From assembly GCA_963845205.1 (NCBI GenBank), contig CAWJRC010000002.1, positions 296,214 through 320,213 on the forward strand: a stretch of 24,000 nt of DNA, in the 5' to 3' direction. Below, in pieces: positions 6,413 to 24,000 of the stretch; position 1 is the stretch's first letter, and each line of letters begins with the position of its first letter. Below the pieces are notes generated by a model. The model did no database searches and had not been told where the DNA came from. It was given only the letters and a program-made list of their open reading frames with translations. The translations under genes and the position numbers were made by a program. The stretch is from an uncultured archaeon (GTDB lineage Archaea; Nanobdellota; Nanobdellia; Pacearchaeales; GW2011-AR1).

Positions 6413-6450
6413 AAGATAAATCTTATAAATTCAGATGTGTATTTTTCTTT

Positions 6451-6990: not shown

Positions 6991-6994
6991 TAAA

Positions 6995-8789: not shown

Positions 8790-8832
8790 ATTTTAGTTTT
8801 ACAAATAATTAAAATTACCCCCTAATTCTTAA

Positions 8833-8905: not shown

Positions 8906-8932
8906 AATAATAATTAAAACAGAGAAAAATAG

Positions 8933-8984: not shown

Positions 8985-9821
8985 ATGTCAAAAATTAATA
9001 GGAATAACAATAATTTAATCAAGATTTATTTGAAAGAAATAGGCAAATATCCTCTTTTAACTCATGATGAAGAAATAGAATTAGGCAAAGCAAAAGAAAA
9101 TAACAAAGAAGCTTCTCAAAAATTAATAAATTCTAATCTGAGGTTAGTTGTAAGTATAGCAAAATATTATCAAAGAAGAGGACTTCCTTTGGAAGATTTA
9201 ATCTCGGAAGGAAATACTGGACTTATGGCTGCAGTTGAAAAATATGATTATAGTAAGGGTTATCGATTCGCATCTTATGCTGTTTGGGACATAAAACAAA
9301 AAATTTTGAAAGCACTTGCAGAACAACCAAAAGGCATAAAGATTCCTTTTAATAAACTATGTGACTTATCAAAAATTAATAAACTTCTTTACAATAAAGA
9401 TCCCTCGAAATTGGGAAATATAGAACAAATAGCAAAAACACTTAATATTGAACCTGAGTTTGTTAGCTATCTTCTTAAGATCTCAAAAGAAACTATTTCT
9501 CTTGATCTCCCTGTTGAAAGTGATTTTGGAGAGCAAAATCTTTTGGAGGATAAGATCTCTCAACAACCTGCGGAATCAGCAATAAACAATTATTTGAAAG
9601 ACGATATCAACAATGTACTTAAGGATCTTTCCCCAGAAGAAATGGATATTATAGAAAAAAGATTTGGCCTTAATGGAAATTACCCCCATACACTGGAGGA
9701 TATTGGCAAAGAATACGATCTAACAAAAGAGAGGATAAGGCAGATTGAAGAAAAGGGGTTAAGAAAATTAAAAAGCGATACTTTTGTTAAGGAAAAATTA
9801 ATTTCTTATTTAGAAGAATAA
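8985..9821 (+). CDS. Sigma-70 family RNA polymerase sigma factor (regions 1.2, 2, 3 and 4 present)
   Basis: Region 1.2: [22 protein letters not shown]. Region 2: [57 protein letters not shown]. Region 4.2 HTH: [28 protein letters not shown]. Confidence 0.85.
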
Positions 9822-9952: not shown

Positions 9953-10075
9953 TGAGCCTACACGGATTTGAACCGTGGACCCCCGCCTCTCTTAGATTTT
10001 TCTAACGAGAGAGTCAATTCTAACGAATTGAAATCATATAAGAGCGGTGCTCTGACCAGGCTGAGCTATAGGCTC
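9953..10075 (-). tRNA. tRNA-Ile (anticodon UAU) with a 48-nt canonical intron
   Basis: Hand fold: GAGCCTA TA GCTC AGCCTGGTCA GAGC A CCGCT CTTATA[intron]A GGCGG GGGTC CACGG TTCAAAT CCGTG TAGGCTC A. The acceptor, D and T stems are fully Watson-Crick paired; the anticodon stem closes with one G-T wobble (T31-G39). The anticodon TAT lies at 10040-10038. The + ORF 9968..10165 is a shadow of this gene. Confidence 0.85.
9989..10036 (-). other. Archaeal bulge-helix-bulge tRNA intron at position 37/38
   Basis: Exon C32-T33-T34-A35 pairs with intron TAAG (central 4-bp helix). 3-nt bulges TA|T and AG|A carry the two splice sites. Intron 5' GATTT pairs with intron 3' AAATC (inner helix). The anticodon stem forms the outer helix. 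Confidence 0.8.
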
Positions 10076-10161: not shown

Positions 10162-13100
10162 ATGAAAAAGAAGGGGGGAATTTTCTTATCTATTTTGATA
10201 TCAATTCTTATTCTTAATTTTGCATCTGCTGCAATCGGAAATTCTTTACACCTAAATATTCAGACGATAAATTCAACAGGAGGGGTGATTACAGGAACAT
10301 TTAACTTTGGTTTTAACATTTCCACTACAAGTGATTGTAATGCTACAAATGTTGTTTATGCAAATGCTTCAACTCTTACAACAGACTCACGAGGGATAAT
10401 TTCTTATTATTTAGACAATGTAAACATTAATTTTTATAGCCAATATTACTGGCTTTGTTATTACAGGAACGGGGTTTTGATAAATTCTTCAAAAATTGTA
10501 GGAATTCCTTATTCTCTTGCTTCTCAAAATACAACTTTAAGCGGTGTAAAGGTTGATAGCAATTTAGTTATGGGAACTTACAATATAACTTCTTCCTGGT
10601 TCTTTGGACTTTTTTCCTGGCTTGTAAACAATGATGTATCTCAAAATTATTTATCATTTAACGGTTCAACTTTAAGCTTTAATGAAACAAAATTAAATAA
10701 TACAATCGATAATATAGCAGCTGTTTTTGGGAATGCCTCTTGGAATCAAAGTTTTGCAAATACATTATATGCAACTATTGGAACTACTAGTGGAAACTTA
10801 TCTTGGAATCAATCATTTGCTAATGGATTGTATGCACCAAATACCACTGCTGGTATTCAATACTTGATTAACTCAACAGGAATTTATTCACAAGGGGGGA
10901 ATGCCTCTTGGAATCAAAGTTTTGCAAATACATTATATGCAACTATTGGAACTACTAGTGGAAACTTATCTTGGAATCAATCATTTGCTAATGGATTGTA
11001 TGCACCAAATACCACTGCTGGTATTCAATACTTGATTAACTCAACAGGAATTTATTCACAAGGGGGGAATGCCTCTTGGAATCAAAGTTTTGCAAATACA
11101 TTATATGCAACTATTGGAACTACTAGTGGAAACTTATCTTGGAATCAATCATTTGCTAATGGATTGTATGCACCAAATACTACAGCAGGGATACAATTTC
11201 TGATTAATGGAACAAATGTGAATTTCTTAAATGTTAATGCAAGTGGAGAAACGATAAATGGAAATTTGACTGCAACTAATTTTATAGGAAACGGGGCATA
11301 CCTTACGGGGATAAGTGGAGGTAGTTCATTCCCTTGGATTAATAGTACAAGTTATGTTCAATTAAACTCTTCTGCAATTCAAGCACTTAATGTTTCTAAT
11401 TTCTTGTTTGTAAATTCAACTAATGTTGGAATAAATGTAACTAGTCCAATATATGAATTACAATTAGGAAATGCAGGAAATGCATTGAATGTTTCAGGAG
11501 TTTTGTATGTTAATTCAACGAGCGGATTTGTTGGGATAAATCAAACAAGTCCGAGTTCATTGTTAGATGTTGGAGGGTCAAGTGGGCAAATTGCACAATT
11601 TGGTGATGCTGGAGGTTTATCCAATCAAAATTATATAACTATAGGGGGAAGCGCCATGTTTGGGTATGATGGAACAACAGATGATGCAGCAATTCAGGGA
11701 ATTTCCGGGAAAGGTATAGAATTTAATGTAGGCAATACTACTTTTGGAGCTAGCAGTTCAACAGCAATGGTAATAACATCTGGGGGGGATATCGGTATTA
11801 ATACAACGAGTCCGACAAATGAATTAGATGTTGGCGGCACAGGAGTTTCTGGAGCGGCTATCTATGGAAATGGAAGTAATCTTCCTTACGCTGTTGGGGT
11901 TTATGGAAGGGGAGATAGTAATATTGGGGTTGAAGGTGTTGGTAGTACTGGAGTTTGGGGAATTGGTAGCATTGGAGTTCAAGGTAGTGGAACTAGCTAT
12001 GGGGTTTATGCCAATGGTGCAGGTGCTTATGATTTCTATGCTGCAAATGCTACAGGAGAAAGTTACTTTGCGGGGAAAATAGGAATAAACGTGAGCAGTC
12101 CAATCTCTTTATTAAGCATAAATGATGCTGGAAATTCTTCATCAAGTTTGTATTCTTACAACGGCCAAACTGGTGGTATAGGAATTTTTGCAAATTCTTC
12201 AAATGCTGGGGGTGTGGGAATATATTCTTACGGCGGAGACAAAGGAGTATTAAGCTATGGAACGAATTATGATTTTTATGGAGGAAATCCTTCGGCATCA
12301 AATTATTTTGCAGGAAATGTAGGTATTGGTAGTGCTACAAGTCCGGTTGCTCCTTTAGATATTTATAATGGGGCGGATCATTTAGCATTATCTGTAGGAT
12401 TAATAAATTCTACAAGAGGTACTAATGGAATGTGGATAACTTCTAGTGCAGATATAAAATTAATTACAGATCAAGCTAAAACGGGTTCATTTGCTGATGT
12501 AGGATTTTATTATCAAAATTCAACAAATCCTAGAATTTATTTTAGAACAAATGGAGATTCTTATTTTAATACTAGCGGAAATGTAGGAATAGGAACAACA
12601 AGTCCAATATCGACATTAAGTGTAGGGGGGAATGGACTTTCTAATGCAGAAATTTATGGTTCTTATAGTTCTGCAGTAGGGGGAGGTTATGGTGTTTATG
12701 GAACCAGTTCTGGTACTGGTGTTCAAGGAATTACCACTGGGAATACTTCTGTTAATTTTGGGGGAAATTTCAGTGCTCCCAACGGAAATTATGCAGAAAT
12801 GGCAACAGGAAATGGTTATGGAATTATTGCAAAATCATCTGGGAGTGCTTATGGGGTTTATACTAATTCATTATATGTTACAACAGGACCTTCACACATT
12901 GAAGGAACACTTTACGTTGCAGGAGGATATGGGAATATTCAATCTGGAGATGTTGCAGAAGATTTGCAGACAATAGCAGGAAGAAATGCAGCATTATGTG
13001 CAGGAAATGTGTCATGTATGGTTAATGATTACAAAAAAGAAGACTTGTCTTATGGGGATGTTGTCTGCATTAATCCAAATTACGGTGAGACAATAATGCT

Positions 13101-13404
13101 CTGCAATGAATCTGATTCAGAATTAGTCGCAGGAGTAGTATCAAATACTTCAACAATAGATATGGGAAGTAATATCTCATTTTCTTATCCAATTGCAGTT
13201 GCAGGAATTGTTTACACAAAGGTTCTTGCAGGAAGCGAAGGAATAAAGCCTGGAGACTTATTAGTTTCAAGTTCTGTTCCGGGATATGCAATGAAAGCCC
13301 CTGCAAACTGGACAGAAGGGACAATATTGGGAAAGGCTTATGATTTCTGCGACACAAGATATTATACTAACTGCACAATACCTATGTTTGTTGCATTAGA
13401 ATAA
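10162..13404 (+). CDS. Large secreted, sequon-rich surface protein (putative S-layer / adhesin-like glycoprotein, tail-fibre-like repeats)
   Basis: Signal peptide MKKKGGIFLSILISILILNFASA. About 56 N-X-S/T sequons by hand count. Six copies of a [VI]GI[GN]xxSPxxxLx[VI] motif (for example VGIGTTSPISTLSVGG). Gly/Ser/Asn/Tyr-rich composition. Distinct Cys-containing C-terminal ~170 aa. Confidence 0.85.
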   Translation: MKKKGGIFLSILISILILNFASAAIGNSLHLNIQTINSTGGVITGTFNFGFNISTTSDCNATNVVYANASTLTTDSRGIISYYLDNVNINFYSQYYWLCYYRNGVLINSSKIVGIPYSLASQNTTLSGVKVDSNLVMGTYNITSSWFFGLFSWLVNNDVSQNYLSFNGSTLSFNETKLNNTIDNIAAVFGNASWNQSFANTLYATIGTTSGNLSWNQSFANGLYAPNTTAGIQYLINSTGIYSQGGNASWNQSFANTLYATIGTTSGNLSWNQSFANGLYAPNTTAGIQYLINSTGIYSQGGNASWNQSFANTLYATIGTTSGNLSWNQSFANGLYAPNTTAGIQFLINGTNVNFLNVNASGETINGNLTATNFIGNGAYLTGISGGSSFPWINSTSYVQLNSSAIQALNVSNFLFVNSTNVGINVTSPIYELQLGNAGNALNVSGVLYVNSTSGFVGINQTSPSSLLDVGGSSGQIAQFGDAGGLSNQNYITIGGSAMFGYDGTTDDAAIQGISGKGIEFNVGNTTFGASSSTAMVITSGGDIGINTTSPTNELDVGGTGVSGAAIYGNGSNLPYAVGVYGRGDSNIGVEGVGSTGVWGIGSIGVQGSGTSYGVYANGAGAYDFYAANATGESYFAGKIGINVSSPISLLSINDAGNSSSSLYSYNGQTGGIGIFANSSNAGGVGIYSYGGDKGVLSYGTNYDFYGGNPSASNYFAGNVGIGSATSPVAPLDIYNGADHLALSVGLINSTRGTNGMWITSSADIKLITDQAKTGSFADVGFYYQNSTNPRIYFRTNGDSYFNTSGNVGIGTTSPISTLSVGGNGLSNAEIYGSYSSAVGGGYGVYGTSSGTGVQGITTGNTSVNFGGNFSAPNGNYAEMATGNGYGIIAKSSGSAYGVYTNSLYVTTGPSHIEGTLYVAGGYGNIQSGDVAEDLQTIAGRNAALCAGNVSCMVNDYKKEDLSYGDVVCINPNYGETIMLCNESDSELVAGVVSNTSTIDMGSNISFSYPIAVAGIVYTKVLAGSEGIKPGDLLVSSSVPGYAMKAPANWTEGTILGKAYDFCDTRYYTNCTIPMFVALE
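10731..11234 (+). repeat. 3 x 168-bp in-frame tandem repeat inside the surface-protein gene
   Basis: Unit starts (gaatgcctcttgg...) at 10731, 10899 and 11067. Units 1 and 2 are identical by eye over all 168 bp. Unit 3 is identical for about 113 bp, then diverges. Each unit encodes 56 aa: NASWNQSFANTLYATIGTTSGNLSWNQSFANGLYAPNTTAGIQYLINSTGIYSQGG. Confidence 0.9.
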
Positions 13405-13606: not shown

Positions 13607-14038
13607 ATGAACAGGAAACTAATCTTATTCATCATGGGAATTTTCTTAATTGGAATCATAATAGCAGAATTAATCCCTTCCAGTGCTCCTGAAACAATAT
13701 ATATCCGAGTTCTTAAAACAGATAATATAACCCCCGAAACAAATGCAATTTGCAAGGCAGATATAATAAAAAATAATGAACTAACAGAAATAAACCTTCT
13801 GAATAAAACTGATTACATGCCCCTTGACTGCTACACCAAGGAATGTGCAAATGAAAGTTATAATCAAGGATTTTACGAACTAGAAACTGGATTAAACAAT
13901 TACAGGGGAAAATTTGAAATAGATATTGTATGCATAACTCCTGTCGGAGTAAGTTACACAATTCTTAATAATACCCATATCCCTTGTGATATAGAAAATA
14001 ACGGGAAAGATGTTGTTTGTTCTAATGTCAGAGATTGA
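13607..14038 (+). CDS. Small secreted or membrane-anchored Cys-containing protein (143 aa)
   Basis: N-terminal hydrophobic segment MNRKLILFIMGIFLIGIIIAELIP, six Cys and four N-X-S/T sequons. No homology recognised. Confidence 0.6.
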   Translation: MNRKLILFIMGIFLIGIIIAELIPSSAPETIYIRVLKTDNITPETNAICKADIIKNNELTEINLLNKTDYMPLDCYTKECANESYNQGFYELETGLNNYRGKFEIDIVCITPVGVSYTILNNTHIPCDIENNGKDVVCSNVRD

Positions 14039-14072
14039 TTAAATTTTTATATTGATTTCTTCTTTACCCGTT

Positions 14073-15605
14073 ATGAGTTTCAAAAGAATGAAGACTGTAA
14101 AAATCTTCTTAGCCCTCTTGTTAATATTAATCTCCGGATTTTTTATTTATGGGGTTCATTACAGTTATTCTGGGATTATACAGGACCCGCACAGCAATCC
14201 TGTTTTTTTAAATGTCACAAATCTTAATTACCCCTTTCCGGTTCATGCAGATGAATGGACTCATCTGGGGCAGATAATTTATATTATCAACAGCAAGACA
14301 TTAGGATTTGTCAATCCCTATTCCCCTAGTTTAACAAACAACAATGAGCTGGAAGTTGGTTTTAATCTATTTCTTGCATTATTTTTCATAATCACAACTT
14401 TGAATCCTGTCCTGAGTTATCAATTCCTCCCGGCAATTTTTTTCATGATCAATGCAACTTTACTTTTCTTTTTCGTCAAAAAACTGACTAAGAATTATTA
14501 TATTGCATTATTTTCCATCTTATTTTTTCTAGCAATTCCAAGCAATATAAATTTTTTGGGAAACTGGTTTGCTGTCCCTTTAACTTTCAGCATATTTTCA
14601 ATTTATCTTTTTTTTATCTGCCTAATTGATTTTATAGAGACCAAAAAGAAAAAATATCTTGCAGGTACAATTATTTCTTATGCAGTTTCATTATGTTATC
14701 CTGTAGCAACTGTATTCATAACAGCAATCGCATTTTTTTATATCATTTCAGAAAGAGATATTTACAACAAATTAAAAAAATATAAAATCCCTTTAATATT
14801 GTTGTCTTTGTTTCTTATCGCGGCTTTAATCTTCTTAATGAATCATTTTTCTTTTTTGATATTCCCAGCTGGCTGGACGTCTGATCAATACAACTATTCT
14901 TTGATATTTTTTTACGGAATCTTGCCTACATTATTTGCATTTATCGGAGTCTATTTCGTTTTGGATAAAAAGTTTAACCGGATATTCCTTATATGGCCTG
15001 CGGTATGTCTGATCAGCCTTTTTATATTCAAAATTTTTGGAATAAGCTTTTTTATCCCCTATGAAAGAACAATGTATTACTATCTCCTAGGGCTTGTTCC
15101 ATTGGCTGCGACAGGATTTTTTTATATTCTCAAATCCCTGTACGATTTAATAGCAAAGAGAATTCCAAGGAACAAGAAAAAATTTTATTTAATCATTATA
15201 ATTATCATCACATTATTAATGTCCTTTTTTATCCTGAGAAATTATTATTCTGTTGGCGAAGACAACTTTGCAGTCATGCACTTAATTGAAAAGCAGGATT
15301 ATGACGCAATAAAATTTATTGGAGATAATTACGGAAAAGGTAAAATAGTCCTAGCAGACAATCTTATTTCAACAGCTATTTATCCAATCAGCCAGGATTA
15401 TGTTGTCGGAATTTTGAGTTCTAATCTGGGGGACGGGAATCTTACGTTAGCAGATGATTTTTTTATGGGCGATTGCGGGGATAAAGAGGAAATAATAAAT
15501 GATTATAAAGTCGATTTAGTTCTTTCAAGATTTGAGATGAATTGTGACTCTTTAAAAGAAGTCTATGATAAAGAAGGAGATTATGTTTATGAAGCTGAAA
15601 AATGA
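14073..15605 (+). CDS. Polytopic membrane protein, putative GT-C-fold glycosyltransferase (PMT/ArnT/GtrC-like)
   Basis: More than 10 hydrophobic helices. Acidic HADEW motif in the first external loop after TM1. Soluble C-terminal ~120 aa. No WWDYG motif, so not an obvious AglB/STT3. I prefer the ATG at 14073 over the track's TTG at 14052. Confidence 0.65.
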   Translation: MSFKRMKTVKIFLALLLILISGFFIYGVHYSYSGIIQDPHSNPVFLNVTNLNYPFPVHADEWTHLGQIIYIINSKTLGFVNPYSPSLTNNNELEVGFNLFLALFFIITTLNPVLSYQFLPAIFFMINATLLFFFVKKLTKNYYIALFSILFFLAIPSNINFLGNWFAVPLTFSIFSIYLFFICLIDFIETKKKKYLAGTIISYAVSLCYPVATVFITAIAFFYIISERDIYNKLKKYKIPLILLSLFLIAALIFLMNHFSFLIFPAGWTSDQYNYSLIFFYGILPTLFAFIGVYFVLDKKFNRIFLIWPAVCLISLFIFKIFGISFFIPYERTMYYYLLGLVPLAATGFFYILKSLYDLIAKRIPRNKKKFYLIIIIIITLLMSFFILRNYYSVGEDNFAVMHLIEKQDYDAIKFIGDNYGKGKIVLADNLISTAIYPISQDYVVGILSSNLGDGNLTLADDFFMGDCGDKEEIINDYKVDLVLSRFEMNCDSLKEVYDKEGDYVYEAEK

Positions 15606-16626
15606 AAAAATATCCGTGATACTTCCTTGCAGAAATGAAGAAAAAACAGTCGGAATCTGTATTGGAAGAATAAAAGAAGCATTAAAAGAAAAAAATTATG
15701 AGATAATAGTCTCAGATTCTTCAACAGACAAAAGCGCAGAAATCGCTAAAAAATTAGGGGTACAGGTTGTCAAGCATAATAAAGAAGGATATGGGAATGC
15801 ATGCCTTGAAGGTTTTAAGCATGCAAAAGGGGATATTGTAGTCTTTGGAGATGCGGACAATACTTATGATTTTTCTGAAATTCCTAAACTTTTGGAATAC
15901 ATCGGAGAATATGACTTAGTTTTGGGAAAAAGAAAATTTATACAGAAAGGATCAATGCCTTTCTCACATAGATATATTGGTAATCCCATTCTTTCATTCA
16001 CTTCTAGATTATTTTTTAAAACAAATGTAAAAGATATAAACACAGGATTCAGGGCCATAAAAAAAGAAAGTTTTGAAAAACTTAATCTTAAAACAACAGG
16101 CATGGAATTTGCGTCAGAAATGATAATAATGGCTGTAAAAAATGGACTTAAAATTAAAGAAGTTCCTGTGCATTATTATAAACGGGAAGGAAATTCCAAA
16201 CTGCGCACGTTCAAGGATGGGTGGAGGCATTTCCGATTTATGCTTTTGTACAGTCCGTTATTTTTATTTTTTATTCCAGGACTGATTTTATTTCTCCTTT
16301 CCATAATTTTTTTATTTTATAATATTTTATTTTCTGCTTTGTTTGTAATAATTGGATATCAACTGATTATTTTTGCATTATTTACAAAAACTTATGCTAT
16401 AACTCATTTTGGGGATAAGCCAATTTTAAATCCATTTTATAAATATCTTTCAATAGAAAGTGCTAGCATTACCGGATTACTGATTATCCTTCTGGGAATC
16501 ATCGCTTATTTTTTAATAGGTACTAATAAAACTGAAAGCGCAATCTTCGCTTTTATGTTCGTAATCATAGGAATTCAAACAATTTTTTCATCCTTCATGC
16601 TAAGCATATTGGGGATTAAGAAATGA
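15589..16626 (+). CDS. GT2 family glycosyltransferase, polyprenyl/dolichyl-phosphate sugar synthase-like, with C-terminal TM helices
   Basis: ISVILPCRNEE, IIVSDSSTD and GDADNTYD (DxD) motifs, RAIKKE, then three or four hydrophobic helices. GGAGA at 15576-15580 favours the ATG at 15589 (alternatives at 15583 and 15565). Overlaps the upstream gene. Confidence 0.85.
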   Translation: MKLKNEKISVILPCRNEEKTVGICIGRIKEALKEKNYEIIVSDSSTDKSAEIAKKLGVQVVKHNKEGYGNACLEGFKHAKGDIVVFGDADNTYDFSEIPKLLEYIGEYDLVLGKRKFIQKGSMPFSHRYIGNPILSFTSRLFFKTNVKDINTGFRAIKKESFEKLNLKTTGMEFASEMIIMAVKNGLKIKEVPVHYYKREGNSKLRTFKDGWRHFRFMLLYSPLFLFFIPGLILFLLSIIFLFYNILFSALFVIIGYQLIIFALFTKTYAITHFGDKPILNPFYKYLSIESASITGLLIILLGIIAYFLIGTNKTESAIFAFMFVIIGIQTIFSSFMLSILGIKK

Positions 16627-17669
16627 AAAAAATAAAACAGATAGGTATGACAAATAAAAAATTTGCACTTGAGTTATACGCGAAGATTACAAATAAAAGA
16701 TTTTTCTGTAGAGTGTTGAGGGATGATTCTTTGTACAACACTGTTATTAATTCGGATTTGACTGTTTCCTGTAACTGCAATGATGATTATGGATTAGGAA
16801 GAATCGGCGATTTTAAAAATCAGAGTTTAGAAGAAATATTTTTAGGAGAAAAAGCAAATAAGTTTAGAAAATCTCTTGCGAAGGGGAAGTTGCCAATAAT
16901 AAATTGTGCTGTCTGTTCAGATTTATGTTTTACAAATAAGAAAGAAGCTGAAAGGTATATGGATCATCTTAGTATTCCCAAAGGTATAATGATAGAAAAC
17001 ACTGTAAACTGTAATCTAAATTGCCTTAGTTGTAATAGGGAAAAGATTTATTCTTTAAGAAGTAAAAGAAATATGTCATTAGAGGACATGAAAAAAATTT
17101 CTCTTGAGATAAAAAAAAGAAAAATAAAACAGATCTCATATTTTAATCTTGGAGAACCATTTTTATCAAAAGATATTAAAAAGGAATTGGAAATTATCAG
17201 AAAAGACAACCCTCATATTGTTATCAATATTTCCACTAATGGAGGGGCATTAGATTCAAAAGAAAAAAGAGAAGCGGCGTTATTTTCTGATAAGGTTATT
17301 TTTTCTATTGATGGCTCTACACAGGAATCCCTAGCCAAATATCAGAAAGGAGGAGATTTTAATAAAGCATATTCCAATATGAAATCTCTTGTAAAATTAA
17401 GAGATCTTCTCAGAAAGAAAAAGCCAGTAATAATATGGAAATATCTTTTATTTAAATGGAATGATAATGAAAAATTAATTTCATATGCAATAAAATTAGC
17501 CAAAGAGGCAAAAATAGATCAGATATATTTTGAAAAAACATTATCACCCCCTTTGTGTGTGTCTTATAAACATTATATTGGTAGGGGGTATTTGAATAAA
17601 ATTTCAAAATTTAATGGAAAGATATGCACAATTTCTCTAGAAAATAAAAAAATACCCGGATCAAAATGA
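16623..17669 (+). CDS. Radical SAM protein with an N-terminal SPASM-like Cys-rich region
   Basis: CNLNCLSC (CxxxCxxC), YFNLGEPFL, ISTNGG and SIDG core motifs. The upstream ~105 aa contain SCNCN...GRIGDFKNQSLEEIF...NCAVCSDLC. ATGA overlap with the GT2 gene. Confidence 0.8.
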   Translation: MKKIKQIGMTNKKFALELYAKITNKRFFCRVLRDDSLYNTVINSDLTVSCNCNDDYGLGRIGDFKNQSLEEIFLGEKANKFRKSLAKGKLPIINCAVCSDLCFTNKKEAERYMDHLSIPKGIMIENTVNCNLNCLSCNREKIYSLRSKRNMSLEDMKKISLEIKKRKIKQISYFNLGEPFLSKDIKKELEIIRKDNPHIVINISTNGGALDSKEKREAALFSDKVIFSIDGSTQESLAKYQKGGDFNKAYSNMKSLVKLRDLLRKKKPVIIWKYLLFKWNDNEKLISYAIKLAKEAKIDQIYFEKTLSPPLCVSYKHYIGRGYLNKISKFNGKICTISLENKKIPGSK

Positions 17670-18751
17670 AAATCGCAATATTTCATAACTATATGGATAA
17701 TATCGGAGGAGCAGAAATGGTTACATTAACATTAGCTAGAGAATTAAAGGCAGATGTCTATTCCACTAATATAGATAGAGATAAAATAAAAAAAATGGGA
17801 TTTGAAGATGTAAATTTAATTTCAATAGGCAAAATTCCCCTTGATGCTCCTTCTAGACAGCAACTTGCGTTATACAGGTTTAGAAGATTAAGTCTGAAAA
17901 ATAAGTATGACTTTTATATAATCTCTGGGGACTGGGCTGTTTCCGCGGCTGTTAATAACCAACCGACTATTTACTATATGCATTCACCGATAAGGGAACT
18001 TTGGGATTTATATGGAGAAGTGCGGAAATCCATTGTTCCATTACGTAACCGCTTTATATTTGATTCATGGGCTTTATATAATCGTTATTTAAATAAAAAA
18101 TATATAAACAAAATTGATAAAATAGTCTGCAATTCTGAAAATACAAAAAAAAGGCTCAACCATTTTCTTCATCGTGATGCTGAAGTTATCTACCCTCCTA
18201 TATACACTAAAAAATTTCATTATAAAAAAAATGGAAATTTCTGGCTTTCTGTCAATCGTCTTTTAAATAATAAGCAAGTTGATATGCAAATTGAAGCTTT
18301 CAAAAAATTGCCGGATGAAAAATTAATTATTGTAGGAAGTTATGAGACAGGAGCAGCACATTTTAGGAAATATGTAAATCATATCAATAAAATTAAGCCT
18401 TCAAATGTCGAAATTTTGCATTGGATTGATTTTAAAAAATTAGTTGAGTTATATTCTAATTGTAAAGGATTTATTACCACAGCAAAAGATGAAGATTTTG
18501 GGATGACTGCTGTTGAAGCAATGGCTTCAGGAAAGCCTGTAATCGCTCCAAATGAGGGGGGATATAAAGAAAGTATTATTGATGGAAAAACAGGAATATT
18601 AATACAGAATATTGATGCTGATAGATTAGCTGAAGCAATTGAAAAAATCGGAAAAAATCCGAAGAAATTTAAAAATGCCTGTTTAAGACAGGCAAAAAAA
18701 TTTGACACAAAAGAATTCATAAAAAAAATTAAAGAAGTTATCCAAGAATGA
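17666..18751 (+). CDS. GT4 (GT-B fold) glycosyltransferase
   Basis: EDFGMTAVEAMASGKPVIAPNEGGYKESIIDGKTGIL contains the EX7E motif. ATGA overlap upstream. Confidence 0.85.
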   Translation: MKIAIFHNYMDNIGGAEMVTLTLARELKADVYSTNIDRDKIKKMGFEDVNLISIGKIPLDAPSRQQLALYRFRRLSLKNKYDFYIISGDWAVSAAVNNQPTIYYMHSPIRELWDLYGEVRKSIVPLRNRFIFDSWALYNRYLNKKYINKIDKIVCNSENTKKRLNHFLHRDAEVIYPPIYTKKFHYKKNGNFWLSVNRLLNNKQVDMQIEAFKKLPDEKLIIVGSYETGAAHFRKYVNHINKIKPSNVEILHWIDFKKLVELYSNCKGFITTAKDEDFGMTAVEAMASGKPVIAPNEGGYKESIIDGKTGILIQNIDADRLAEAIEKIGKNPKKFKNACLRQAKKFDTKEFIKKIKEVIQE

Positions 18752-19734
18752 AAACTTTATTTTTATCCCATTGCCCTCATGAAGTTCATCTTGAATTTGC
18801 AAAATCGATCGGGGCAAAAATAAAAATTACTCATCTAAATTGGTTTGTTTTGCTTTATAAGAAAATTCCTTTAATCAGCTACTTTTATCCTTCCCTCTCT
18901 TTTTTGTACAGCCTTTTTATCAGCTCTCAGGAAGATATTTTATTGGTTGATGGAGGTTCTTCTTTATATCTTGCGGCCTTTTTAAAATTGAGAAATCCTA
19001 AAATTAAGATTATATACCTAGATGGGGATATGATTTTTTATTACCTAAACAAACAATCTACACTAACAGATAATTTTAGACTCTCTTTTTTTTTCAGAAA
19101 GATTGACGGAATTATCTCTGTTTCTGAACAAAATAAAAAACTTGCTTTAAAATATGTTAATGTACCTGTAGAAGTGGTTAACCCTTATCCAAAACAAATT
19201 AAAAAAATAGATATTAAAAGGAAAAATTATGGATTATATGTCGGAAGACTAGATCCTGATAAAGACATTAAAAGAATTCTGGGATTTGGTTTGCAGTGTC
19301 CTTATTTTGAAAAATTTATAATTGTGGGTGATGGGGCGTATAAAGGTTACATAAAAAGAATTTCTAAACAAAATAAGAAAATAATTTATATGGGGCAAAG
19401 AAAAGATGTGGATAAGTTTTATAACGAATCTAAATTTTTAATTCACATCCCTGATTATGATCCTCATCCATGTACAACAATGGAAGCAGCAATGTGCGGA
19501 TGTTTTCCAATAATCTCTGCAGGGACAGGAACTAATTACTTATTTGACAAAATGTTTATTGTAGAAGATTCTAACAATTTTAATGAAATTAATGAAAAAA
19601 TAAAAAATATACTTGATAATGCAGGAAAGGCAAGAAAATTGCTTAAACAGTCTGTTAAAAAATTTCCAACAAAAGAAAAAGCAATCAAAATATTTGAAAA
19701 TTCATTTAACAAAATAACAAATAATAAAAAATGA
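18748..19734 (+). CDS. GT-B-like glycosyltransferase (divergent GT4/GT1)
   Basis: GLYVGRLDPDKD...IIVGDG...PCTTMEAAMCGCFPIIS resembles a GT-B C-terminal domain, but the second Glu of EX7E is replaced. ATGA overlap upstream. Confidence 0.6.
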   Translation: MKTLFLSHCPHEVHLEFAKSIGAKIKITHLNWFVLLYKKIPLISYFYPSLSFLYSLFISSQEDILLVDGGSSLYLAAFLKLRNPKIKIIYLDGDMIFYYLNKQSTLTDNFRLSFFFRKIDGIISVSEQNKKLALKYVNVPVEVVNPYPKQIKKIDIKRKNYGLYVGRLDPDKDIKRILGFGLQCPYFEKFIIVGDGAYKGYIKRISKQNKKIIYMGQRKDVDKFYNESKFLIHIPDYDPHPCTTMEAAMCGCFPIISAGTGTNYLFDKMFIVEDSNNFNEINEKIKNILDNAGKARKLLKQSVKKFPTKEKAIKIFENSFNKITNNKK

Positions 19735-20741
19735 AAGAAAATTTACTTGTAACGCTCGCAGACAAGAATTACATTGATCAGGCAAAGCAGCTGTTTTCAA
19801 GCGTTTACTGGAATGCAGGATGGAAAGGAGATTATATGCTTCTTGCTCATGAAATCCCCGAAAAAGACCTGAAATGGTTCAGGGACAAGGGTATTCTAAT
19901 TAAGAAATGCAAATTGTTATACAACAAAGTGTGGGAGTGGTTTTCACCAATTATATTAGACAAGTTTTATTTATTTACTCCTGAATTTAAGAAATGGAAA
20001 CATGTTATCTTCCTAGATGCAGATATTATTGTAAGGGCTTCTTTGGATAAACTAATGAAAACAACAGGATTTAACGCAGTTACTGATATGGATGGCCCTA
20101 AATTAAAAAATCAGATTACCGAAAAAAGTAAAAGCATATTTTTGGAGAAAAAATTCAGACTCAATAAAAAATGCTTTAATTCAGGGGTTATGGCTTTTTC
20201 TACAGATATAATAAAAGAGGATAGTTTTTCTAAATTAAAAGGATTATTCCTTGAATATAAACAATTTAGTAAATTTTGGGAACAATTAATCCTTAATGTT
20301 TATTTTTATAAGAAATGGAAAAAACTGCCTTTGGTCTATAATCTTTATTCGTTTTCATTGGTAGAGTATAATAAGATTAACATTAAAAGAGTAAGGGCAA
20401 TAATTTTTCATTTTGTTAAATTTGATAGTCTTTATTCCAAACCTTGGGAAAAAAATAACCCTTTTAACCCTGAATGGAAATATAATTTAGAAAGAGCAGA
20501 TTTGATTGATTTGAACAATATTCCTGAAGGAAAAGGATTTAATTTCTATTTTCTACCTTTATTTTTAAAAAGTGTGTCCTACATTCATTTTTTATTTAAA
20601 AAAGAAAGAGTCTATAAAAGAATAAAAAATATTTTTCGCTATGTAATAAATACTCCTGATAGGATTATAGGACAAATTGGAATTTTGATAAAAAAGCACA
20701 ATCCTGATTTGTATTACAAATTAAAGGGAGTAAAAAAATGA
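19731..20741 (+). CDS. GT8-like glycosyltransferase, array copy 1 (336 aa)
   Basis: GT8-type motifs: LADKNYIDQAKQLFSS, FLDADIIV (DxD), FNSGVMAF, EQLILNVYFY, HF...KPWE. Confidence 0.8.
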   Translation: MKENLLVTLADKNYIDQAKQLFSSVYWNAGWKGDYMLLAHEIPEKDLKWFRDKGILIKKCKLLYNKVWEWFSPIILDKFYLFTPEFKKWKHVIFLDADIIVRASLDKLMKTTGFNAVTDMDGPKLKNQITEKSKSIFLEKKFRLNKKCFNSGVMAFSTDIIKEDSFSKLKGLFLEYKQFSKFWEQLILNVYFYKKWKKLPLVYNLYSFSLVEYNKINIKRVRAIIFHFVKFDSLYSKPWEKNNPFNPEWKYNLERADLIDLNNIPEGKGFNFYFLPLFLKSVSYIHFLFKKERVYKRIKNIFRYVINTPDRIIGQIGILIKKHNPDLYYKLKGVKK

Positions 20742-21778
20742 AAGAGAACTTACTTGTGACGCTTGCAGACAAGAATTACATTGATCAGGCAAAGCAGCTG
20801 TTTTCAAGCGTTTACTGGAATGCAGGATGGAAGGGAGATTACATGCTTTTGGCTCATGAAATTCCTGAAAAAGACCTGAAATGGTTCAGGGACAAGGGGA
20901 TTCTGATTAAGAAATGCAAGCCAATCTATGAACATAAGATTGGGATTAAAGAGCTTCGCTCAGGAACTGTAATAAGCAAATTTTACCTATTTACTCTTTA
21001 TTTCAAAAAATGGAAACATGTTATTTTTATAGAATCAGACACGATAGTAAGGGCATCGTTAAACAGGCTTTCAAAAATTAAGGGATTTTATGCTACAGAT
21101 GTTTCTGATAAACCAAAACTTTTAGATCAGATTTCAGATATCCGTTTTTTTAATGAGCTAAACAAATATGACTTAAATAAACCAAGTTTTAATCCTGGGG
21201 TTATGGCTTTTTCCACGAATATAATAAAAGATGAAACTTTTACAGAATTAAAAAGTTTATTTAAAAAGTATAAAGCAATAAGCAAATATGGGGAAGAATT
21301 TATCATTAATGTTTACTTTTACAAGAAATGGAAAAAATTGCCTTTAATCTATAACCTATGGCCCCATTATCTTGATTTTTATTATAATATAAAGCCTAGG
21401 AATGTTCAAGCGGTTATTTTACATTTTGCAGGAATAGATGATAAAAAAGAACTTCGCCCATGGGATCCTTTCAATCCTTTTTACCCCGAATGGAAATCTA
21501 ATCTAGAAAAGGCAGAATTAATTGATTTGAACAAGATTCCTGAAGGAAAGAAATGGAGCAGTTTCAAAATTTATTCTTATTCTTTTTATTTGAATAGGAA
21601 GATTTTACGTAAAAAATTACCTATCTTAATAGAAAAAATTGTTTTATCAAAAAGAAAGATTGTTTCTTGGGTGAAATATGTTATTGGCACTCCCGATAGG
21701 ATTATAGGACAAATTGGAATTTTAATAAAGAAGCACAATCCTGATATGTACTACAAATTAAAGGGGGTAAAAAAATGA
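20738..21778 (+). CDS. GT8-like glycosyltransferase, array copy 2 (346 aa)
   Basis: Same N-terminal 61 aa as copy 1. FIESDTIV replaces the DxD. Also FNPGVMAF, GEEFIINVYFY, HFAG...RPWD. Confidence 0.8.
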   Translation: MKENLLVTLADKNYIDQAKQLFSSVYWNAGWKGDYMLLAHEIPEKDLKWFRDKGILIKKCKPIYEHKIGIKELRSGTVISKFYLFTLYFKKWKHVIFIESDTIVRASLNRLSKIKGFYATDVSDKPKLLDQISDIRFFNELNKYDLNKPSFNPGVMAFSTNIIKDETFTELKSLFKKYKAISKYGEEFIINVYFYKKWKKLPLIYNLWPHYLDFYYNIKPRNVQAVILHFAGIDDKKELRPWDPFNPFYPEWKSNLEKAELIDLNKIPEGKKWSSFKIYSYSFYLNRKILRKKLPILIEKIVLSKRKIVSWVKYVIGTPDRIIGQIGILIKKHNPDMYYKLKGVKK

Positions 21779-22803
21779 AAGAAAACTTGCTTGTAACGCT
21801 TGCAGACAAGAATTACATTGACCAGGCAAAGCAGCTGTTCTCAAGCGTTTACTGGAATGCAGGATGGAAAGGGGATTACATGCTTCTTGCTCATGAAATT
21901 CCTGAAAAAGACCTGAAATGGTTCAGGGACAAGGGGATTCTGATTAAGAAATGCAAGCCATTATACAATAAGCCGATTGGAGAAGGTTACCGCCCTGTTG
22001 TTTTAGACAAGTTTTATTTATTTACTCCTGAATTTAGGAAATGGAAGCATGTTATTTATTTGGATGCAGATATTATTGTAAGGGCTTCTTTGGATGAACT
22101 AACAAAGGTTAACAGATTTGCAGCAAGTGATTCTATATTCCAGTTAAGGAAACAATTTTTCAATAGGACTAAGAATGAAAAATTGTTTTTTGAGGAAATA
22201 AATCTTGGTTATAATATTAATAAACTTTCATTTAATACAGGAGTTCTAGCCTTTCCAACTAATATAATTCAGGAAAATTCTTTTAATGAATTAAAAAAAA
22301 TTTTTAAGAGATATAAATCTATTTGTCGGATAGGGGAGGAACCAATTTTTAATTTATTCTTTTATAGAAAAAGAAAAAAAATTCCTTGGGTTTATAATAC
22401 AGATATGCTTAGGATTATTTATGATTGTAACATTAAACCCGAAAAAATAAAAGGGGTTACTTTACATTTTATATCCTGCCCCTCAATAACTAATAAACCT
22501 TGGGAAAAAAATAATCCTTTTTATCCCGAATGGAAATCTAATTTAGAAAGAGCAGAACTGATTGATTTGAATAATAGAATTCCCCCTAAAAAAAGATGGA
22601 GAGAAGTTACAGCAGAATATTACACCTTATATTTGAAGTCGAGGGAAAAAATTGTTTTTATTATTAAACTTACTCATTCAAAGATTAAAAAAACTTTTTA
22701 TTTCTTAATAAATACTCCTGATAGAATTATAGGACAAATTGGAATTTTAATAAAAAAGCACAATCCTAATCTGTACTACAAATTAAAGGGGGTAAAAAAA
22801 TGA
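21775..22803 (+). CDS. GT8-like glycosyltransferase, array copy 3 (342 aa)
   Basis: Same N-terminal 61 aa. YLDADIIV, FNTGVLAF, GEEPIFNLFFY, HF...KPWE. Confidence 0.8.
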   Translation: MKENLLVTLADKNYIDQAKQLFSSVYWNAGWKGDYMLLAHEIPEKDLKWFRDKGILIKKCKPLYNKPIGEGYRPVVLDKFYLFTPEFRKWKHVIYLDADIIVRASLDELTKVNRFAASDSIFQLRKQFFNRTKNEKLFFEEINLGYNINKLSFNTGVLAFPTNIIQENSFNELKKIFKRYKSICRIGEEPIFNLFFYRKRKKIPWVYNTDMLRIIYDCNIKPEKIKGVTLHFISCPSITNKPWEKNNPFYPEWKSNLERAELIDLNNRIPPKKRWREVTAEYYTLYLKSREKIVFIIKLTHSKIKKTFYFLINTPDRIIGQIGILIKKHNPNLYYKLKGVKK

Positions 22804-23834
22804 AAGAAAACTTGCTTGTAACGCTTGCAGACAAGAATTACATTGACCAGGCAAAGCAGCTGTTCTCAAGCGTTTACTGGAATGCAGGATGGAAAGGGGA
22901 TTACATGCTTCTTGCTCATGAAATTCCTGAAAAAGACCTGAAATGGTTCAGGGACAAGGGGATTCTGATTAAGAAATGCAAATTACTGTCCAAGAAAGGG
23001 TGGGGGTGGTTTTCACCAATTATATTAGACAAGTTTTATTTATTTACTCCCGAATTCAAAAAATGGAAACACGTTATTTTTCTCGATGCAGATATTATTG
23101 TAAGAGCTTCTTTGGATAAACTAGCGAAAACAACAGGATTTAATGCAGTTACTGATATGGATGGTCCTAAATTAAAAAACCAGATTACCGAAAAAAGTAA
23201 AAGCATATTTTTAGAGAGAAAATTCAGACTCAATGCAAAATTTTTCAATGCAGGCGTTATGGCTTTTTCTACGGATATAATAAAAGAGGATAGTTTTTCT
23301 AAATTAAAAGAATTATTCCTTGAATATAAACAATTTAGTAAATTTGGGGAACAATTAATTCTTAATGTTTACTTTTACAAGAAATGGAAAAAACTGCCTT
23401 TGGTTTATAATCTATGGCCATATTATCTTAATTTCTATTATGATTTAAAACTAAGAACTATTCAAGCTATTATTTTTCATTTTATAGGAATAGATGATAA
23501 AAAAGAATTTCGTCCATGGGATCCTTTCAATCCTTTTTACCCTGAATGGAAATCTAACCTAGAAAAAGCAGAATTAATTGATTTGAACAAGATTCCTGAA
23601 GGAAAGAAATGGAGCAGTTTCAAAATTTATTCTTATTCTTTTTATTTGAATAGGAAGATTTTACGTAAAAAATTACCTATCTTAATAGAAAAAATTGTTT
23701 TATCAAAAAGAAAGATTGTTTCTTGGGTGAAATATGTTATTGGCACTCCCGATAGGATTATAGGACAAATTGGAATTTTAATAAAGAAGCACAATCCTGA
23801 TATGTACTACAAATTAAAGGGGGTAAAAAAATGA
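22800..23834 (+). CDS. GT8-like glycosyltransferase, array copy 4 (344 aa, chimeric)
   Basis: Same N-terminal 61 aa. The core is nearly identical to copy 1 (FLDADIIV, FNAGVMAF, GEQLILNVYFY). The C-terminal third matches copy 2. Confidence 0.8.
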   Translation: MKENLLVTLADKNYIDQAKQLFSSVYWNAGWKGDYMLLAHEIPEKDLKWFRDKGILIKKCKLLSKKGWGWFSPIILDKFYLFTPEFKKWKHVIFLDADIIVRASLDKLAKTTGFNAVTDMDGPKLKNQITEKSKSIFLERKFRLNAKFFNAGVMAFSTDIIKEDSFSKLKELFLEYKQFSKFGEQLILNVYFYKKWKKLPLVYNLWPYYLNFYYDLKLRTIQAIIFHFIGIDDKKEFRPWDPFNPFYPEWKSNLEKAELIDLNKIPEGKKWSSFKIYSYSFYLNRKILRKKLPILIEKIVLSKRKIVSWVKYVIGTPDRIIGQIGILIKKHNPDMYYKLKGVKK

Positions 23835-24000
23835 AAGAAAACTTACTTGTAACGTTTGAGGAATGTGTAGAACTTGGTAAATCTTTAAGACGAGAGGGTA
23901 AAAATGTATTAGCTATAAAGGCATTTAAAAAAGCTAAAAAGATGTTCCCTGTTCGGGATGATGTATTCCTAAAAAATAAAATACTTAATGAAATTGAGGT
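23831..24000 (+). CDS. Hypothetical protein, partial (runs off the window)
   Basis: My translation: MKENLLVTFEECVELGKSLRREGKNVLAIKAFKKAKKMFPVRDDVFLKNKILNEIE..., open to the window end. ATGA overlap with copy 4. The first 8 codons are shared with the GT8 paralogues. Confidence 0.5.
   Translation, partial: MKENLLVTFEECVELGKSLRREGKNVLAIKAFKKAKKMFPVRDDVFLKNKILNEIE

Follow-up and report, generated by a model that had tools for sequence, protein, structure and literature searches.

A tandem array of GT8 glycosyltransferase genes with conserved ends in a putative surface-glycan operon of a DPANN archaeon

Four adjacent glycosyltransferase genes of an uncultured archaeon begin with the same peptide, end with nearly the same one and differ in between. 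An earlier note made from the sequence alone took this layout for a cassette system that diversifies or expands glycosyl-transfer specificities. We asked whether the genes belong to such a system or have a more ordinary origin, using the whole 24,000-nucleotide stretch of DNA in which they lie (the window). The attribution to a small-genome archaeon is supported (DPANN, Pacearchaeota-like).

The array and its gene neighbourhood

The array consists of four intact head-to-tail ORFs on the plus strand (19731-23834), each of which overlaps the next by ATGA, and is followed by a fifth ORF:

19731..20741, + strand: GT8 copy 1 (336 aa; own core type; Pfam PF01501 E = 1.1e-16)
20738..21778, + strand: GT8 copy 2 (346 aa; E-S-D replaces D-A-D at the DxD position; Pfam E = 1.2e-15)
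21775..22803, + strand: GT8 copy 3 (342 aa; third core type; Pfam E = 5.2e-15)
22800..23834, + strand: GT8 copy 4 (344 aa; three-part chimera)
23831..24000, + strand: fifth ORF, clipped by the window end; its first 8 codons are those of the array (MKENLLVT) and are followed by unrelated sequence

ORF coordinates and alignment confirm the lengths, ATGA joints and shared ends first noted for these genes. The first 61 aa are identical in copies 1-4, and the last 29 aa are near-identical, with the pattern TPDRIIGQIGILIKKHNP[DN][LM]YYKLKGVKK. At the nucleotide level, a gene's last 87 nt, the ATGA overlap and the first 183 nt of the following gene form a contiguous repeat of ~270 bp (repeat family D3; 4 copies, 89-100% identity) that alternates with the variable cores:

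20655..20920, + strand: junction repeat 1 (family D3)
21692..21957, + strand: junction repeat 2 (family D3)
22717..22982, + strand: junction repeat 3 (family D3)
23748..23854, + strand: terminal partial junction repeat (C-terminal block and first 24 nt of the N-terminal block; D3 copy at 23733-23858)

The last repeat thus extends 24 nt into the fifth ORF, which starts at 23831 and then diverges. No homologue of this ORF was found in a database that also lacks the ORF's own product. Outside the window, the same 374,879-bp contig encodes a fifth full paralogue (P0009; 353 aa), which also begins with the 61-aa block.

Upstream of the array are the following genes:

10162..13404, + strand: secreted, sequon-rich protein with internal repeats (1080 aa; candidate glycan acceptor)
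14052..15605, + strand: membrane protein with a GT-C fold (11 predicted transmembrane segments)
15565..16626, + strand: GT2 with C-terminal transmembrane segments (Pfam E = 1.5e-29; five hydrophobic segments)
16623..17669, + strand: radical SAM protein with a Cys-rich SPASM/twitch-like N-terminal region
17666..18751, + strand: GT4 glycosyltransferase a (Pfam E = 4e-32)
18748..19734, + strand: GT4 glycosyltransferase b (Pfam Glycos_transf_1; immediately upstream of the array, with an ATGA overlap)

In the 1080-aa protein we counted 56 N-X-S/T sequons, as compared with 24 +/- 4 in shuffled sequences, which agrees with the number of about 56 given before. The array is not directly downstream of it, as had been stated, because six genes intervene (13607-19734). 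Gene proximity is what makes this protein a candidate for the glycan acceptor. Homologues of its C-terminal domain are encoded upstream of the same cluster in two other loci (L001, L002), and in a further one (L029) the neighbouring surface protein is 89% identical and the adjacent glycosyltransferase genes are 100% identical.

The GT-C-fold protein is nearest by fold to the STT3/AglB/PglB oligosaccharyltransferases, without the WWDxG motif. The GT2 resembles a polyprenyl-phosphate sugar synthase, and in L029 and L030 the same protein carries the GT2_TM_C family annotation. Orthologues of GT4 a (50-71% identity) adjoin GT8 genes in at least 12 DPANN and CPR loci, and an orthologue of GT4 b (67%) is directly upstream of three GT8 genes in another locus (L031); the GT2-GT4-GT8 set as a whole is conserved across DPANN and CPR loci. 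Arrays of 3-9 such GT8 genes are present on other public contigs. The arrangement is thus not rare, but the impression that it is undescribed holds in so far as our literature search found no paper describing such GT8 arrays.

Conserved ends in the GT8 subfamily

All four copies score above the PF01501 gathering threshold (E between 5.2e-15 and 1e-18), in keeping with the initial GT8 assignment. The predicted structure of copy 1 (AlphaFold2; pLDDT 92.9) is likewise GT8-like, and its fold matches glycogenin, WbbM, GlyE and LgtC with a probability of 1.0. Residues D98 and H227 are invariant across 113 sequences.

Among 108 homologues from DPANN archaea, CPR bacteria, Bacteroidota and others, identity to copy 1 is 82% over aa 1-61, 39% over aa 62-307 and 53% over aa 308-336. 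The N-terminal block was seen in 54 genes from DPANN, CPR, Bacteroidota and other loci, and it defines 323 clusters among 1.84 billion representatives. As judged from these comparisons, constant ends around a variable core are the conservation profile of the whole GT8 subfamily, across phyla and domains, and not a special property of this array as had been supposed. On the same sequence evidence, both conserved ends are under very strong purifying selection throughout the subfamily, which supports the earlier suggestion that selection keeps the N-terminal peptide constant.

The 61-aa block probably corresponds to the first strand-helix-strand-helix-strand unit of the nucleotide-binding fold. 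Given that 82% identity between domains of life exceeds the usual need of nucleotide binding, it may also have another role, for instance as a common partner or oligomer interface. The C-terminal 71 aa contain 16 K/R, as compared with 4 D/E, and 13 aromatic residues, and they include the most amphipathic segment of the protein; this basic, aromatic, amphipathic tail is probably a membrane anchor.

Recombination between the copies

The synonymous differences reported for the N-terminal block are present: over 183 nt, copy 1 differs from the others at 11-12 positions, and copy 3 from copy 4 at one. When end blocks and cores are rated separately, as had been recommended, dS amounts to 0.03-0.47 for the end blocks, 3-4 times less than for the cores (1.2-1.9), so that gene conversion has acted in addition to purifying selection. 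Codon use was also compared at identical residues. The fraction of such residues with the same codon is 0.79-0.98 within the array, against 0.51 expected from the codon usage of the window (p <= 1.6e-5) and 0.43 in comparisons with other genomes. Between copies 1 and 3, the N-terminal block has no higher share of identical codons than the core (Fisher p = 0.70). Comparable but older arrays (L031, L032, L003/L035, L006/L036, L004, L007) have occasional conversion tracts, and in most other arrays the codon similarity of the end blocks is at background (0.37-0.48); among those compared, this is the only array in which every end is homogenised.

Copy 4 is a chimera beyond statistical doubt. Its start (22800-22981) matches that of copy 3 at 182 of 183 nt; from 22982 to ~23410 (alignment codons 62-213) it is copy 1-like (~91% nt), and from ~23410 to 23834 (codon 213 to the end) copy 2-like (~94% nt), including an exact 267-nt match to copy 2 at 23568-23834. 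At sites that distinguish copies 1 and 2, it sides with copy 1 by 120:13 on the left and with copy 2 by 119:8 on the right, and the two parent switches are supported by p = 3e-10 and p = 5e-48 (the latter by Fisher's test). The conserved ends, which had been thought to invite homologous recombination, do take part in it, as seen from this chimera and from the exact repeats of 182 nt (copies 3 and 4) and 267 nt (copies 2 and 4).

The description of the cores as strongly different applies to copies 1, 2 and 3 (~45-57% identity, saturated dS), but not to copy 4, whose core is a mosaic of copy 1-like and copy 2-like halves; in the first core half, copies 1 and 4 share 93% amino-acid identity. Copies 3 and 1 share an 82-nt tract with 90% identity (22495-22576 and 20439-20520). 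Copy 2 has a partial orthologue in another metagenome (P0015), also with the E-S-D motif, to which it is 78% identical in the first core half and 48% in the second. For the exchanged segments we obtained a dN/dS of 0.10 between copies 1 and 4 in the first half of the core, and of 0.22-0.27 between copies 2 and 4 in the second half; these values indicate purifying selection and give no hint of diversifying selection.

Origin of the array and comparison with known systems

The array is probably a tandem expansion of GT8 paralogues in a surface-glycan operon and would evolve, like the Neisseria lgt locus, through unequal crossing-over and gene conversion. The best reading is ordinary growth and change of a surface-sugar gene cluster rather than a dedicated diversity machine. 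In this scenario, a retaining GT8 subfamily with a GT-A fold would have expanded at the far end of a long operon whose genes are translationally coupled. Each copy is probably a peripheral-membrane enzyme that would transfer one sugar from a nucleotide sugar onto a growing lipid- or protein-linked glycan, and different cores may confer different donor, acceptor or linkage specificity, by analogy with the GT8 series of the LPS outer core and of pneumococcal PsrP. The junction repeats and shorter conserved intragenic stretches could be substrates for ordinary homologous recombination, in which unequal crossing-over would add or remove whole in-frame genes, and gene conversion would homogenise the ends and make chimeric genes such as copy 4. 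Variation of the glycan may be beneficial.

If the ends were instead purpose-built recombination handles, the cores could be shuffled or expanded in a programmed way, with frequent diversification of surface-glycan specificities that would serve to evade viruses or to switch hosts. The long, contiguous and highly similar junction repeats, between which recombination is always in frame, would suit such a system, as would the existence of a chimera, very recent tracts with dS = 0 (i.e., ongoing exchange), the different histories of the two core halves of copy 2 between genomes, and the strain variation in the neighbouring surface protein. However, every subfamily member has the conserved ends, even where the gene is single-copy or belongs to an old array without homogenisation. 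Each copy is a complete gene of the expressed type, translationally coupled to its neighbours, rather than a silent or truncated donor, and the window lacks recombinase and DGR reverse transcriptase genes, invertase sites, silent cassettes and long inverted repeats. The exchanged segments, apart from their low dN/dS, have a dS of 0.35-0.45, and the chimera is therefore not recent. We find no sign of the cassette system proposed at the outset and regard it as unlikely. Amplification for dosage, with redundant copies raising one activity, is less likely again. The catalytic motifs common to the copies, the identical N-terminal block and the close first core halves of copies 1 and 4 would fit it, but not the divergence of the other cores or the distinct E-S-D motif that copy 2 shares with its partial orthologue. 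Purifying selection on each core type suggests that their functions are distinct and maintained.

As the window comes from a metagenome contig, the array, or copy 4 if not all of it, might have been misassembled across repeats from one to three real genes or strain variants. A short-read assembler could permute copies 3 and 4 or mask further copies at the two exact repeats, two independent short-read assemblies (L029, L030) end at or before the first conserved block, and the Logan assemblies have no record of any of the four proteins. Nevertheless, misresolved exact repeats could alter gene order, not gene content, and every copy has sequence of its own: 34 of 390 nt set copy 4 apart from copy 1, and ~20 positions set it apart from copy 2. 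Variants specific to copy 4 flank its internal switch within ~15 nt of each other, and a k-mer misjoin is implausible there because copies 1 and 2 match exactly over 15 nt at most. The ORFs are intact with identical ATGA junctions, and the Logan contig L030 matches the first 56 nt of copy 1 exactly and then breaks, as at a true repeat. We consider an artefact very improbable. Least credible is the possibility that the copies are old independent paralogues whose ends are alike through protein constraint alone. The strong conservation of the blocks between phyla at the protein level and the background codon similarity in most other arrays are consistent with it, but the same-codon excess, the lowered end-block dS, the long exact matches and the mosaic copy 4 are not, and the nucleotide data already contradict it.

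Tandem expansion with ordinary recombination can be compared with several known systems. Gene conversion at pilE/pilS, shufflons and DGRs also have variable segments between conserved flanks and produce mosaic genes, but they rely on silent donors or a dedicated recombinase or reverse transcriptase and a single expression site, none of which is seen in the array. LgtC, the WaaI/WaaJ-type LPS GT8 enzymes and WbbM (PDB 1G9R, 6U4B) have the retaining GT-A fold in common with the array enzymes, as well as the DxD and H...KPW motifs. The C-terminal region of LgtC is likewise basic, aromatic and membrane-associated. By sequence profile, WbbM matches best (E = 6.6e-16), and copy 1 matched none of the NCBIfam models. 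Identity to these enzymes is only 15-20%, and the hyperconserved block QAKQLFSSVYWNAGWKGDYMLLAH is specific to the GT8 subfamily of the array.

At the pneumococcal PsrP locus (Jiang et al. 2017), several GT8-domain enzymes encoded beside a repetitive surface protein act sequentially and produce polymorphic glycans. GlyE from this locus (PDB 5GVV) is among the best structural matches. However, the PsrP system performs serine-rich-repeat O-glycosylation in a Gram-positive bacterium, and its GT8 enzymes do not form a homogenised head-to-tail array and lack the N-terminal block and C-terminal tail.

The Neisseria lgt locus (lgtA-E) resembles the array in having adjacent paralogous glycosyltransferase genes with long stretches of high identity in one surface-glycan locus. 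Homologous recombination between its paralogues (lgtA/lgtD, lgtB/lgtE) deletes genes or makes hybrid genes and so alters the glycan. In strain 15253, according to PMC2192810, lgtA and lgtE alone are retained. The lgt locus differs in that its paralogue pairs are GT2 and GT25, with only lgtC belonging to GT8, that its host is an animal pathogen rather than an archaeon, and that its variation is mainly homopolymer phase variation, which is not evident in the array; in the array, by contrast, homologous segments span every gene junction.

The GT8 array and its junction repeats

On the + strand, an unbroken series of ORFs runs from 14052 to the end of the window, with joins that are mostly ATGA overlaps. 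Its distal part is a head-to-tail array of four ORFs, and re-reading 19731-23834 recovered the sizes and ATGA joins that the earlier note had given for them:

19731-20741, + strand, GT8 copy 1, 336 aa
20738-21778, + strand, GT8 copy 2, 346 aa
21775-22803, + strand, GT8 copy 3, 342 aa
22800-23834, + strand, GT8 copy 4, 344 aa

The proposal that these ORFs encode GT8 glycosyltransferases is borne out by Pfam: all four proteins match Glyco_transf_8 (PF01501) at E = 1e-15 to 1e-18, scoring 56-68 bits against a cut-off of 24.3 and covering nearly the whole 253-position model. A family profile search of solved structures returned WbbM, 3TZT, GlyE, glycogenin and LgtC. The AlphaFold2 model of copy 1 (pLDDT 92.9) has a GT-A fold like that of solved GT8 structures, and Foldseek matched it to glycogenin, WbbM, GlyE, LgtC and 3TZT at probability 1.0, with target-normalised TM-scores of 0.65-0.75. 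The DxD position reads D96-A-D98 in copies 1, 3 and 4 and E-S-D in copy 2; the metal-binding D98 and H227 do not vary across the 113 family members aligned, and the (K/R)PW motif begins with K in copies 1 and 3 and with R in the other two. As judged by sequence, motifs and, for copy 1, predicted fold, the four copies are members of the GT8 family.

Residues 1-61 (the N-terminal block) are identical in the four copies, the final 29 residues (the tail) are near-constant, with the pattern TPDRIIGQIGILIKKHNP[DN][LM]YYKLKGVKK, and the synonymous differences that had been cited for the N-terminal block are present in the nucleotide sequence. In the DNA, the tail of each gene runs directly into the head of the next, so that the array consists of variable segments of ~750 bp alternating with junction repeats of ~270 bp, which a repeat comparison placed as follows:

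20655-20920, + strand, junction repeat 1
21692-21957, + strand, junction repeat 2
22717-22982, + strand, junction repeat 3

The junction repeats are 89-100% identical to one another, and half a repeat lies at either end of the array. Recombination between any two of them would remove or duplicate entire genes and preserve the reading frame. In the tail codons AAA GGG GTA AAA AAA TGA, a G-rich, Shine-Dalgarno-like stretch lies 8-9 nt ahead of the next ATG, which suggests translational coupling along the array. The last partial repeat reaches 24 nt into a fifth ORF (23831-24000, cut by the window end), which begins MKENLLVT and continues into unrelated, helix-rich sequence; the point of divergence marks the outer boundary of the duplicated unit. 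The 56-aa fragment of this ORF had no homologue in a database of 5.8 billion sequences, where not even shared words were found, its own product included. A fifth GT8 paralogue, P0009, has the 61-aa start in common with the array and is encoded outside the window on the same 374,879-bp contig. Two proteins from other organisms, P0126 (676 aa) and P0127 (633 aa), each carry two complete GT8 units of the subfamily in one polypeptide. In the window, lengthening the A7 run of each junction (GTAAAAAAATGA) by a single A would fuse neighbouring copies in frame.

The four copies had to be weighed against an artefact of repeat assembly. Every copy has unique sequence and an intact frame. Two contigs of the same or a closely related population, L029 (ERR11523656) and L030 (ERR10755942), come from independent short-read assemblies and carry the upstream genes at 99.7-100% identity. 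Both end at the array edge; L030 matches copy 1 exactly over 56 nt and then stops inside the conserved block, as an assembly would at a real repeat. Given the exact repeats of 182 nt and 267 nt, the arrangement of copies 3 and 4 and the lack of further copies are provisional.

Chimerism, gene conversion and selection

The cores had been described as strongly divergent in all four genes. This holds for copies 1, 2 and 3, but copy 4 is a mosaic, so the array does not contain four independent core types. At its start, copy 4 is the same as copy 3 at 182 of 183 nt; over alignment codons 62-213 it has ~91% nucleotide identity to copy 1, and beyond codon 213 it has ~94% identity to copy 2, with the final 267 nt an exact match. 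Where a site distinguishes copy 1 from copy 2, copy 4 agrees with copy 1 by 120:13 ahead of the internal switch and with copy 2 by 119:8 beyond it (Fisher p = 5e-48). A further significant switch marks the end of the N-terminal block (p = 3e-10). The internal switch is not due to a misjoin during assembly: copies 1 and 2 share no more than 15 exact nt there, and variants specific to copy 4 closely flank it.

Smaller exchange tracts are found among the other copies. Copies 1 and 3 have a common 82-nt tract at 90% identity, and codons 41-61 of copy 2 are identical to those of copies 3 and 4, with nine differing positions in codons 1-40. Exact matches between copies measure 68, 72, 182 and 267 nt. 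The array is a real and tidy case of concerted evolution and chimera formation among glycosyltransferase genes.

The earlier note had attributed the constant N-terminal peptide to selection on the protein and not only to recent duplication. Between genomes, where protein constraint alone operates, identical residues use the same codon in about 40-43% of cases, and the codon usage of the window predicts 51%; in the N-terminal block within the array the figure is 79-98% (p <= 1.6e-5). Separate estimates for ends and cores (Nei-Gojobori) put the dS of the N-terminal block at 0.03-0.47 and that of the tail at 0-0.45, far below the 1.2-1.9 between the cores of copies 1, 2 and 3. Given this excess of shared codons and the low dS of the end blocks, the ends have been partly homogenised at the DNA level, and both selection and gene conversion act on them. 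The codon contrast between the N-terminal block and conserved core positions is significant for pairs 1/2 and 2/3 and not significant for copies 1/3, which agrees with the additional tracts that this last pair shares.

Diversifying selection on the cores is without support. The exchanged segments are under purifying selection, with dN/dS of 0.10 for copies 1/4 in the first core half and 0.22-0.27 for copies 2/4 in the second; old core comparisons, which are saturated, give about 0.26-0.35.

A GT8 subfamily with conserved ends

The constant ends are real, but they are not peculiar to the array, since the conservation profile of homologues assigns them to a whole GT8 subfamily. Nearly the same N-terminal block recurs in homologues from other samples. 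Measured against copy 1, 108 non-self homologues have a mean identity of 82% over aa 1-61, 39% over aa 62-307 and 53% over aa 308-336. The 61-aa block as a query retrieved 323 clusters (E <= 1e-10) among 1.84 billion cluster representatives, the clusters being taken at 50% identity. The subfamily is represented in DPANN archaea and CPR bacteria (Paceibacter, Saccharibacteria, Taylorbacteria), on genuine Bacteroidota contigs alongside Por_Secre_tail and TilS genes, and in MAGs of Deltaproteobacteria, Cloacimonadota and Verrucomicrobiae.

In the copy 1 model, the N-terminal block makes up the first three strands of the fold, with the first two helices between them, and includes a D-x-N-Y element, which is the nucleotide binder in GT8 enzymes such as LgtC and glycogenin. 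The C-terminal 71 aa are strongly basic (16 K/R vs 4 D/E) and aromatic, and include the most amphipathic segment of the protein. The C-terminus of LgtC associates with the membrane, and given this likeness we infer that this region is probably a membrane anchor. The hyperconserved N-terminal block marks a distinct GT8 subfamily, which is a possible target for biochemistry.

Head-to-tail arrays of this subfamily are common elsewhere. In the syntenic relative L031, an orthologous GT4 gene is followed by three copies whose content is unlike that of the window array; L032 has seven copies and one more beside an ABC-2 transporter, and of two Bacteroidales contigs one (L003/L035) has nine in 21 kb and the other (L006/L036) has six. 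In most other arrays the codon similarity of the end blocks is at background (0.37-0.48), with local conversion tracts in L032 (copies 6/7) and L007 (copies 1/2), and among the arrays examined only that of the window has all of its ends homogenised.

Stable, non-recombining orthologues in related genomes had been named as an outcome that would speak against a recombining array, and this is not what was found, because between genomes the core halves can differ in their history. Copy 2 and P0015, its relative from another metagenome, share 78% identity over the first half of the core and 48% over the second half. The conserved YFYKKWKKLP hinge thus seems to be a recurrent point of exchange. Literature searches found no description of such arrays, and none of concerted evolution of this sort in the present lineage.

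Genes of the subfamily repeatedly adjoin radical SAM/SPASM and B12-radical SAM genes (L032, L035, L036, and the window at 16623-17669). In several clusters a full GT8, including the tail, is fused to a C-terminal radical SAM domain in a protein of ~660 aa (P0146, P0160, P0190; L003:14559-16553 = L035:4057-6051). The radical SAM gene of the window was considered as an orthologue of the domain fused in P0146 and rejected, as only generic similarity around CxxxCxxC was found (E = 0.003).

Probable surface-glycan context and comparison with known systems

Upstream of the array, the same series of ORFs encodes the following proteins:

14052-15605, + strand, membrane protein of 517 aa with 11 predicted transmembrane segments and a GT-C fold
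15565-16626, + strand, GT2 with C-terminal transmembrane segments, resembling a polyprenyl-phosphate sugar synthase
16623-17669, + strand, radical SAM protein (Pfam)
17666-19734, + strand, two GT4 enzymes (Pfam), GT4a and GT4b

The model of the 517-aa protein (pLDDT 83.1) has STT3, AglB and PglB as its best Foldseek matches (E = 2e-8 to 1e-4, probability 1.0), followed by DPY19, AftA and ArnT. A canonical oligosaccharyltransferase was considered and rejected: WW and WWDxG are absent from the sequence, the STT3 family of Pfam gives no match even at E <= 10, and we accordingly classify the protein by its GT-C fold only. It has no Pfam or NCBIfam match at all. It is ~200-350 aa shorter than STT3, AglB and PglB, and its residues H65, D67, E68 and R339 are invariant in 19 homologues. 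In L029 (ERR11523656; 1448-3002), the homologue is split into two ORFs corresponding to aa 1-201 and 250-517, each ~99% identical, which could reflect a frameshift, an indel variant or an assembly error.

Orthologues of the GT2, GT4a and the 517-aa protein accompany GT8 genes in many DPANN and CPR loci. A GT2-TM/GT4/GT8 cluster is common to the two groups (contigs L001, L005, L007, L009, L010, L012, L015-L018, L021, L024, L025 and L031), often with a homologue of the 517-aa protein and with GT4a orthologues 50-71% identical. This distribution suggests that the GT2-GT4-GT8 cluster is a cross-domain surface-glycan module of ultra-small symbionts.

The secreted 1080-aa protein encoded upstream (10162-13404) has the 56 N-X-S/T sequons that had been counted in it, vs 24 +/- 4 in shuffles, and is a plausible glycan acceptor. 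In such a pathway, the GT4 and GT8 enzymes would extend a lipid-linked glycan on the cytoplasmic face, with lipid-linked sugars then serving as substrates for the GT-C-fold enzyme outside the cell. The 1080-aa protein also contains near-identical internal repeats of ~59 aa in roughly three copies (GNASWNQSFANTLYATIGTTSGNLSWNQSFANGLYAPNTTAGIQYLINSTGIYSQG). The C-terminal 224 aa of its homologue in L029 (126-800) are only 89% identical, whereas the adjacent GT genes are 99.7-100% identical, which argues that this surface protein evolves fast.

For the array genes and for the GT2 and GT4 genes beside them, the closest homologues are in Pacearchaeota, Woesearchaeota and Nanoarchaeota MAGs. The 5' part of the window contains the following features:

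8832-8906, - strand, tRNA-Glu(TTC)
8985-9821, bacterial-type (RpoD-like) sigma-70 of 278 aa

Rfam also places a tRNA over 123 nt at 9953-10075 (- strand), missed by ARAGORN; its length implies an intron (~50 nt), a trait typical of archaea. A bacterial origin of the window, which the sigma-70 gene might suggest, was rejected given the intron-containing tRNA, the DPANN best homologues, and the sigma-70 genes reported in DPANN genomes (PMC8204110). Also in this part of the window are a complete AmmeMemoRadiSam set at 5663-8391 (Memo, 5663-6412, - strand; radical SAM, 6857-7855, + strand; AMMECR1, 7852-8391, + strand), an adjoining Elp3-type radical SAM/GNAT tRNA modification enzyme (4316-5698), and a 430-aa protein (2335-3627, - strand) in which a nucleoside phosphorylase domain (PNP_UDP_1) is fused to a phosphoribosyltransferase domain and which looks like a compact nucleotide-salvage enzyme.

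In DPANN archaea and CPR bacteria, which live attached to other cells, the surface glycans probably have a central part in host recognition and virus resistance. To our knowledge, almost nothing is known about how these glycans are built or varied. The locus is a concrete and testable case, with a conserved GT2-GT4-GT8 cluster and a GT-C-fold protein, in which the distal GT8 genes expand and recombine. One joint reading, which we put forward as speculative and rather unlikely, is of an undescribed GT8 subfamily (~323 clusters in DPANN, CPR and Bacteroidota, with arrays of up to 7-9 genes, linked to and sometimes fused with radical SAM proteins) in which the ends would be common docking modules and the contiguous junctions would let whole cores be gained, lost or recombined in frame. 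If so, small-genome episymbionts would have a fast, population-level route to an altered surface glycan.

The earlier note had likened the array to a cassette system, and this idea is not supported. Each of the four copies is full length, has a start codon and is coupled through ATGA, and none is a silent or truncated donor. No recombinase or reverse transcriptase domain was found by Pfam in any scanned ORF of the window, and the inverted matches in the array are short, AT-rich and chance-like. Programmed systems such as pilE/pilS, shufflons and DGRs were therefore rejected as a family assignment, as no silent donors, recombinase, reverse transcriptase or long inverted repeats were found in the window. 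Duplication and gene conversion among tandem glycosyltransferase paralogues are well known in bacterial pathogens, and the array thus extends a familiar principle to a new lineage and is not a new principle. In the Neisseria lgt locus, tandem paralogous transferases recombine, giving gene deletions and hybrids. This locus is the nearest analogue in mechanism: the array likewise has adjacent paralogues with long near-identical DNA, and a hybrid gene of the lgt type in copy 4, with its copy 3, copy 1-like and copy 2-like segments. The gene content of the lgt locus differs between strains (PMC2192810). The nearest analogue in enzymology is the set of pneumococcal GT8 enzymes that glycosylate PsrP, which do so polymorphically (Jiang et al. 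2017).
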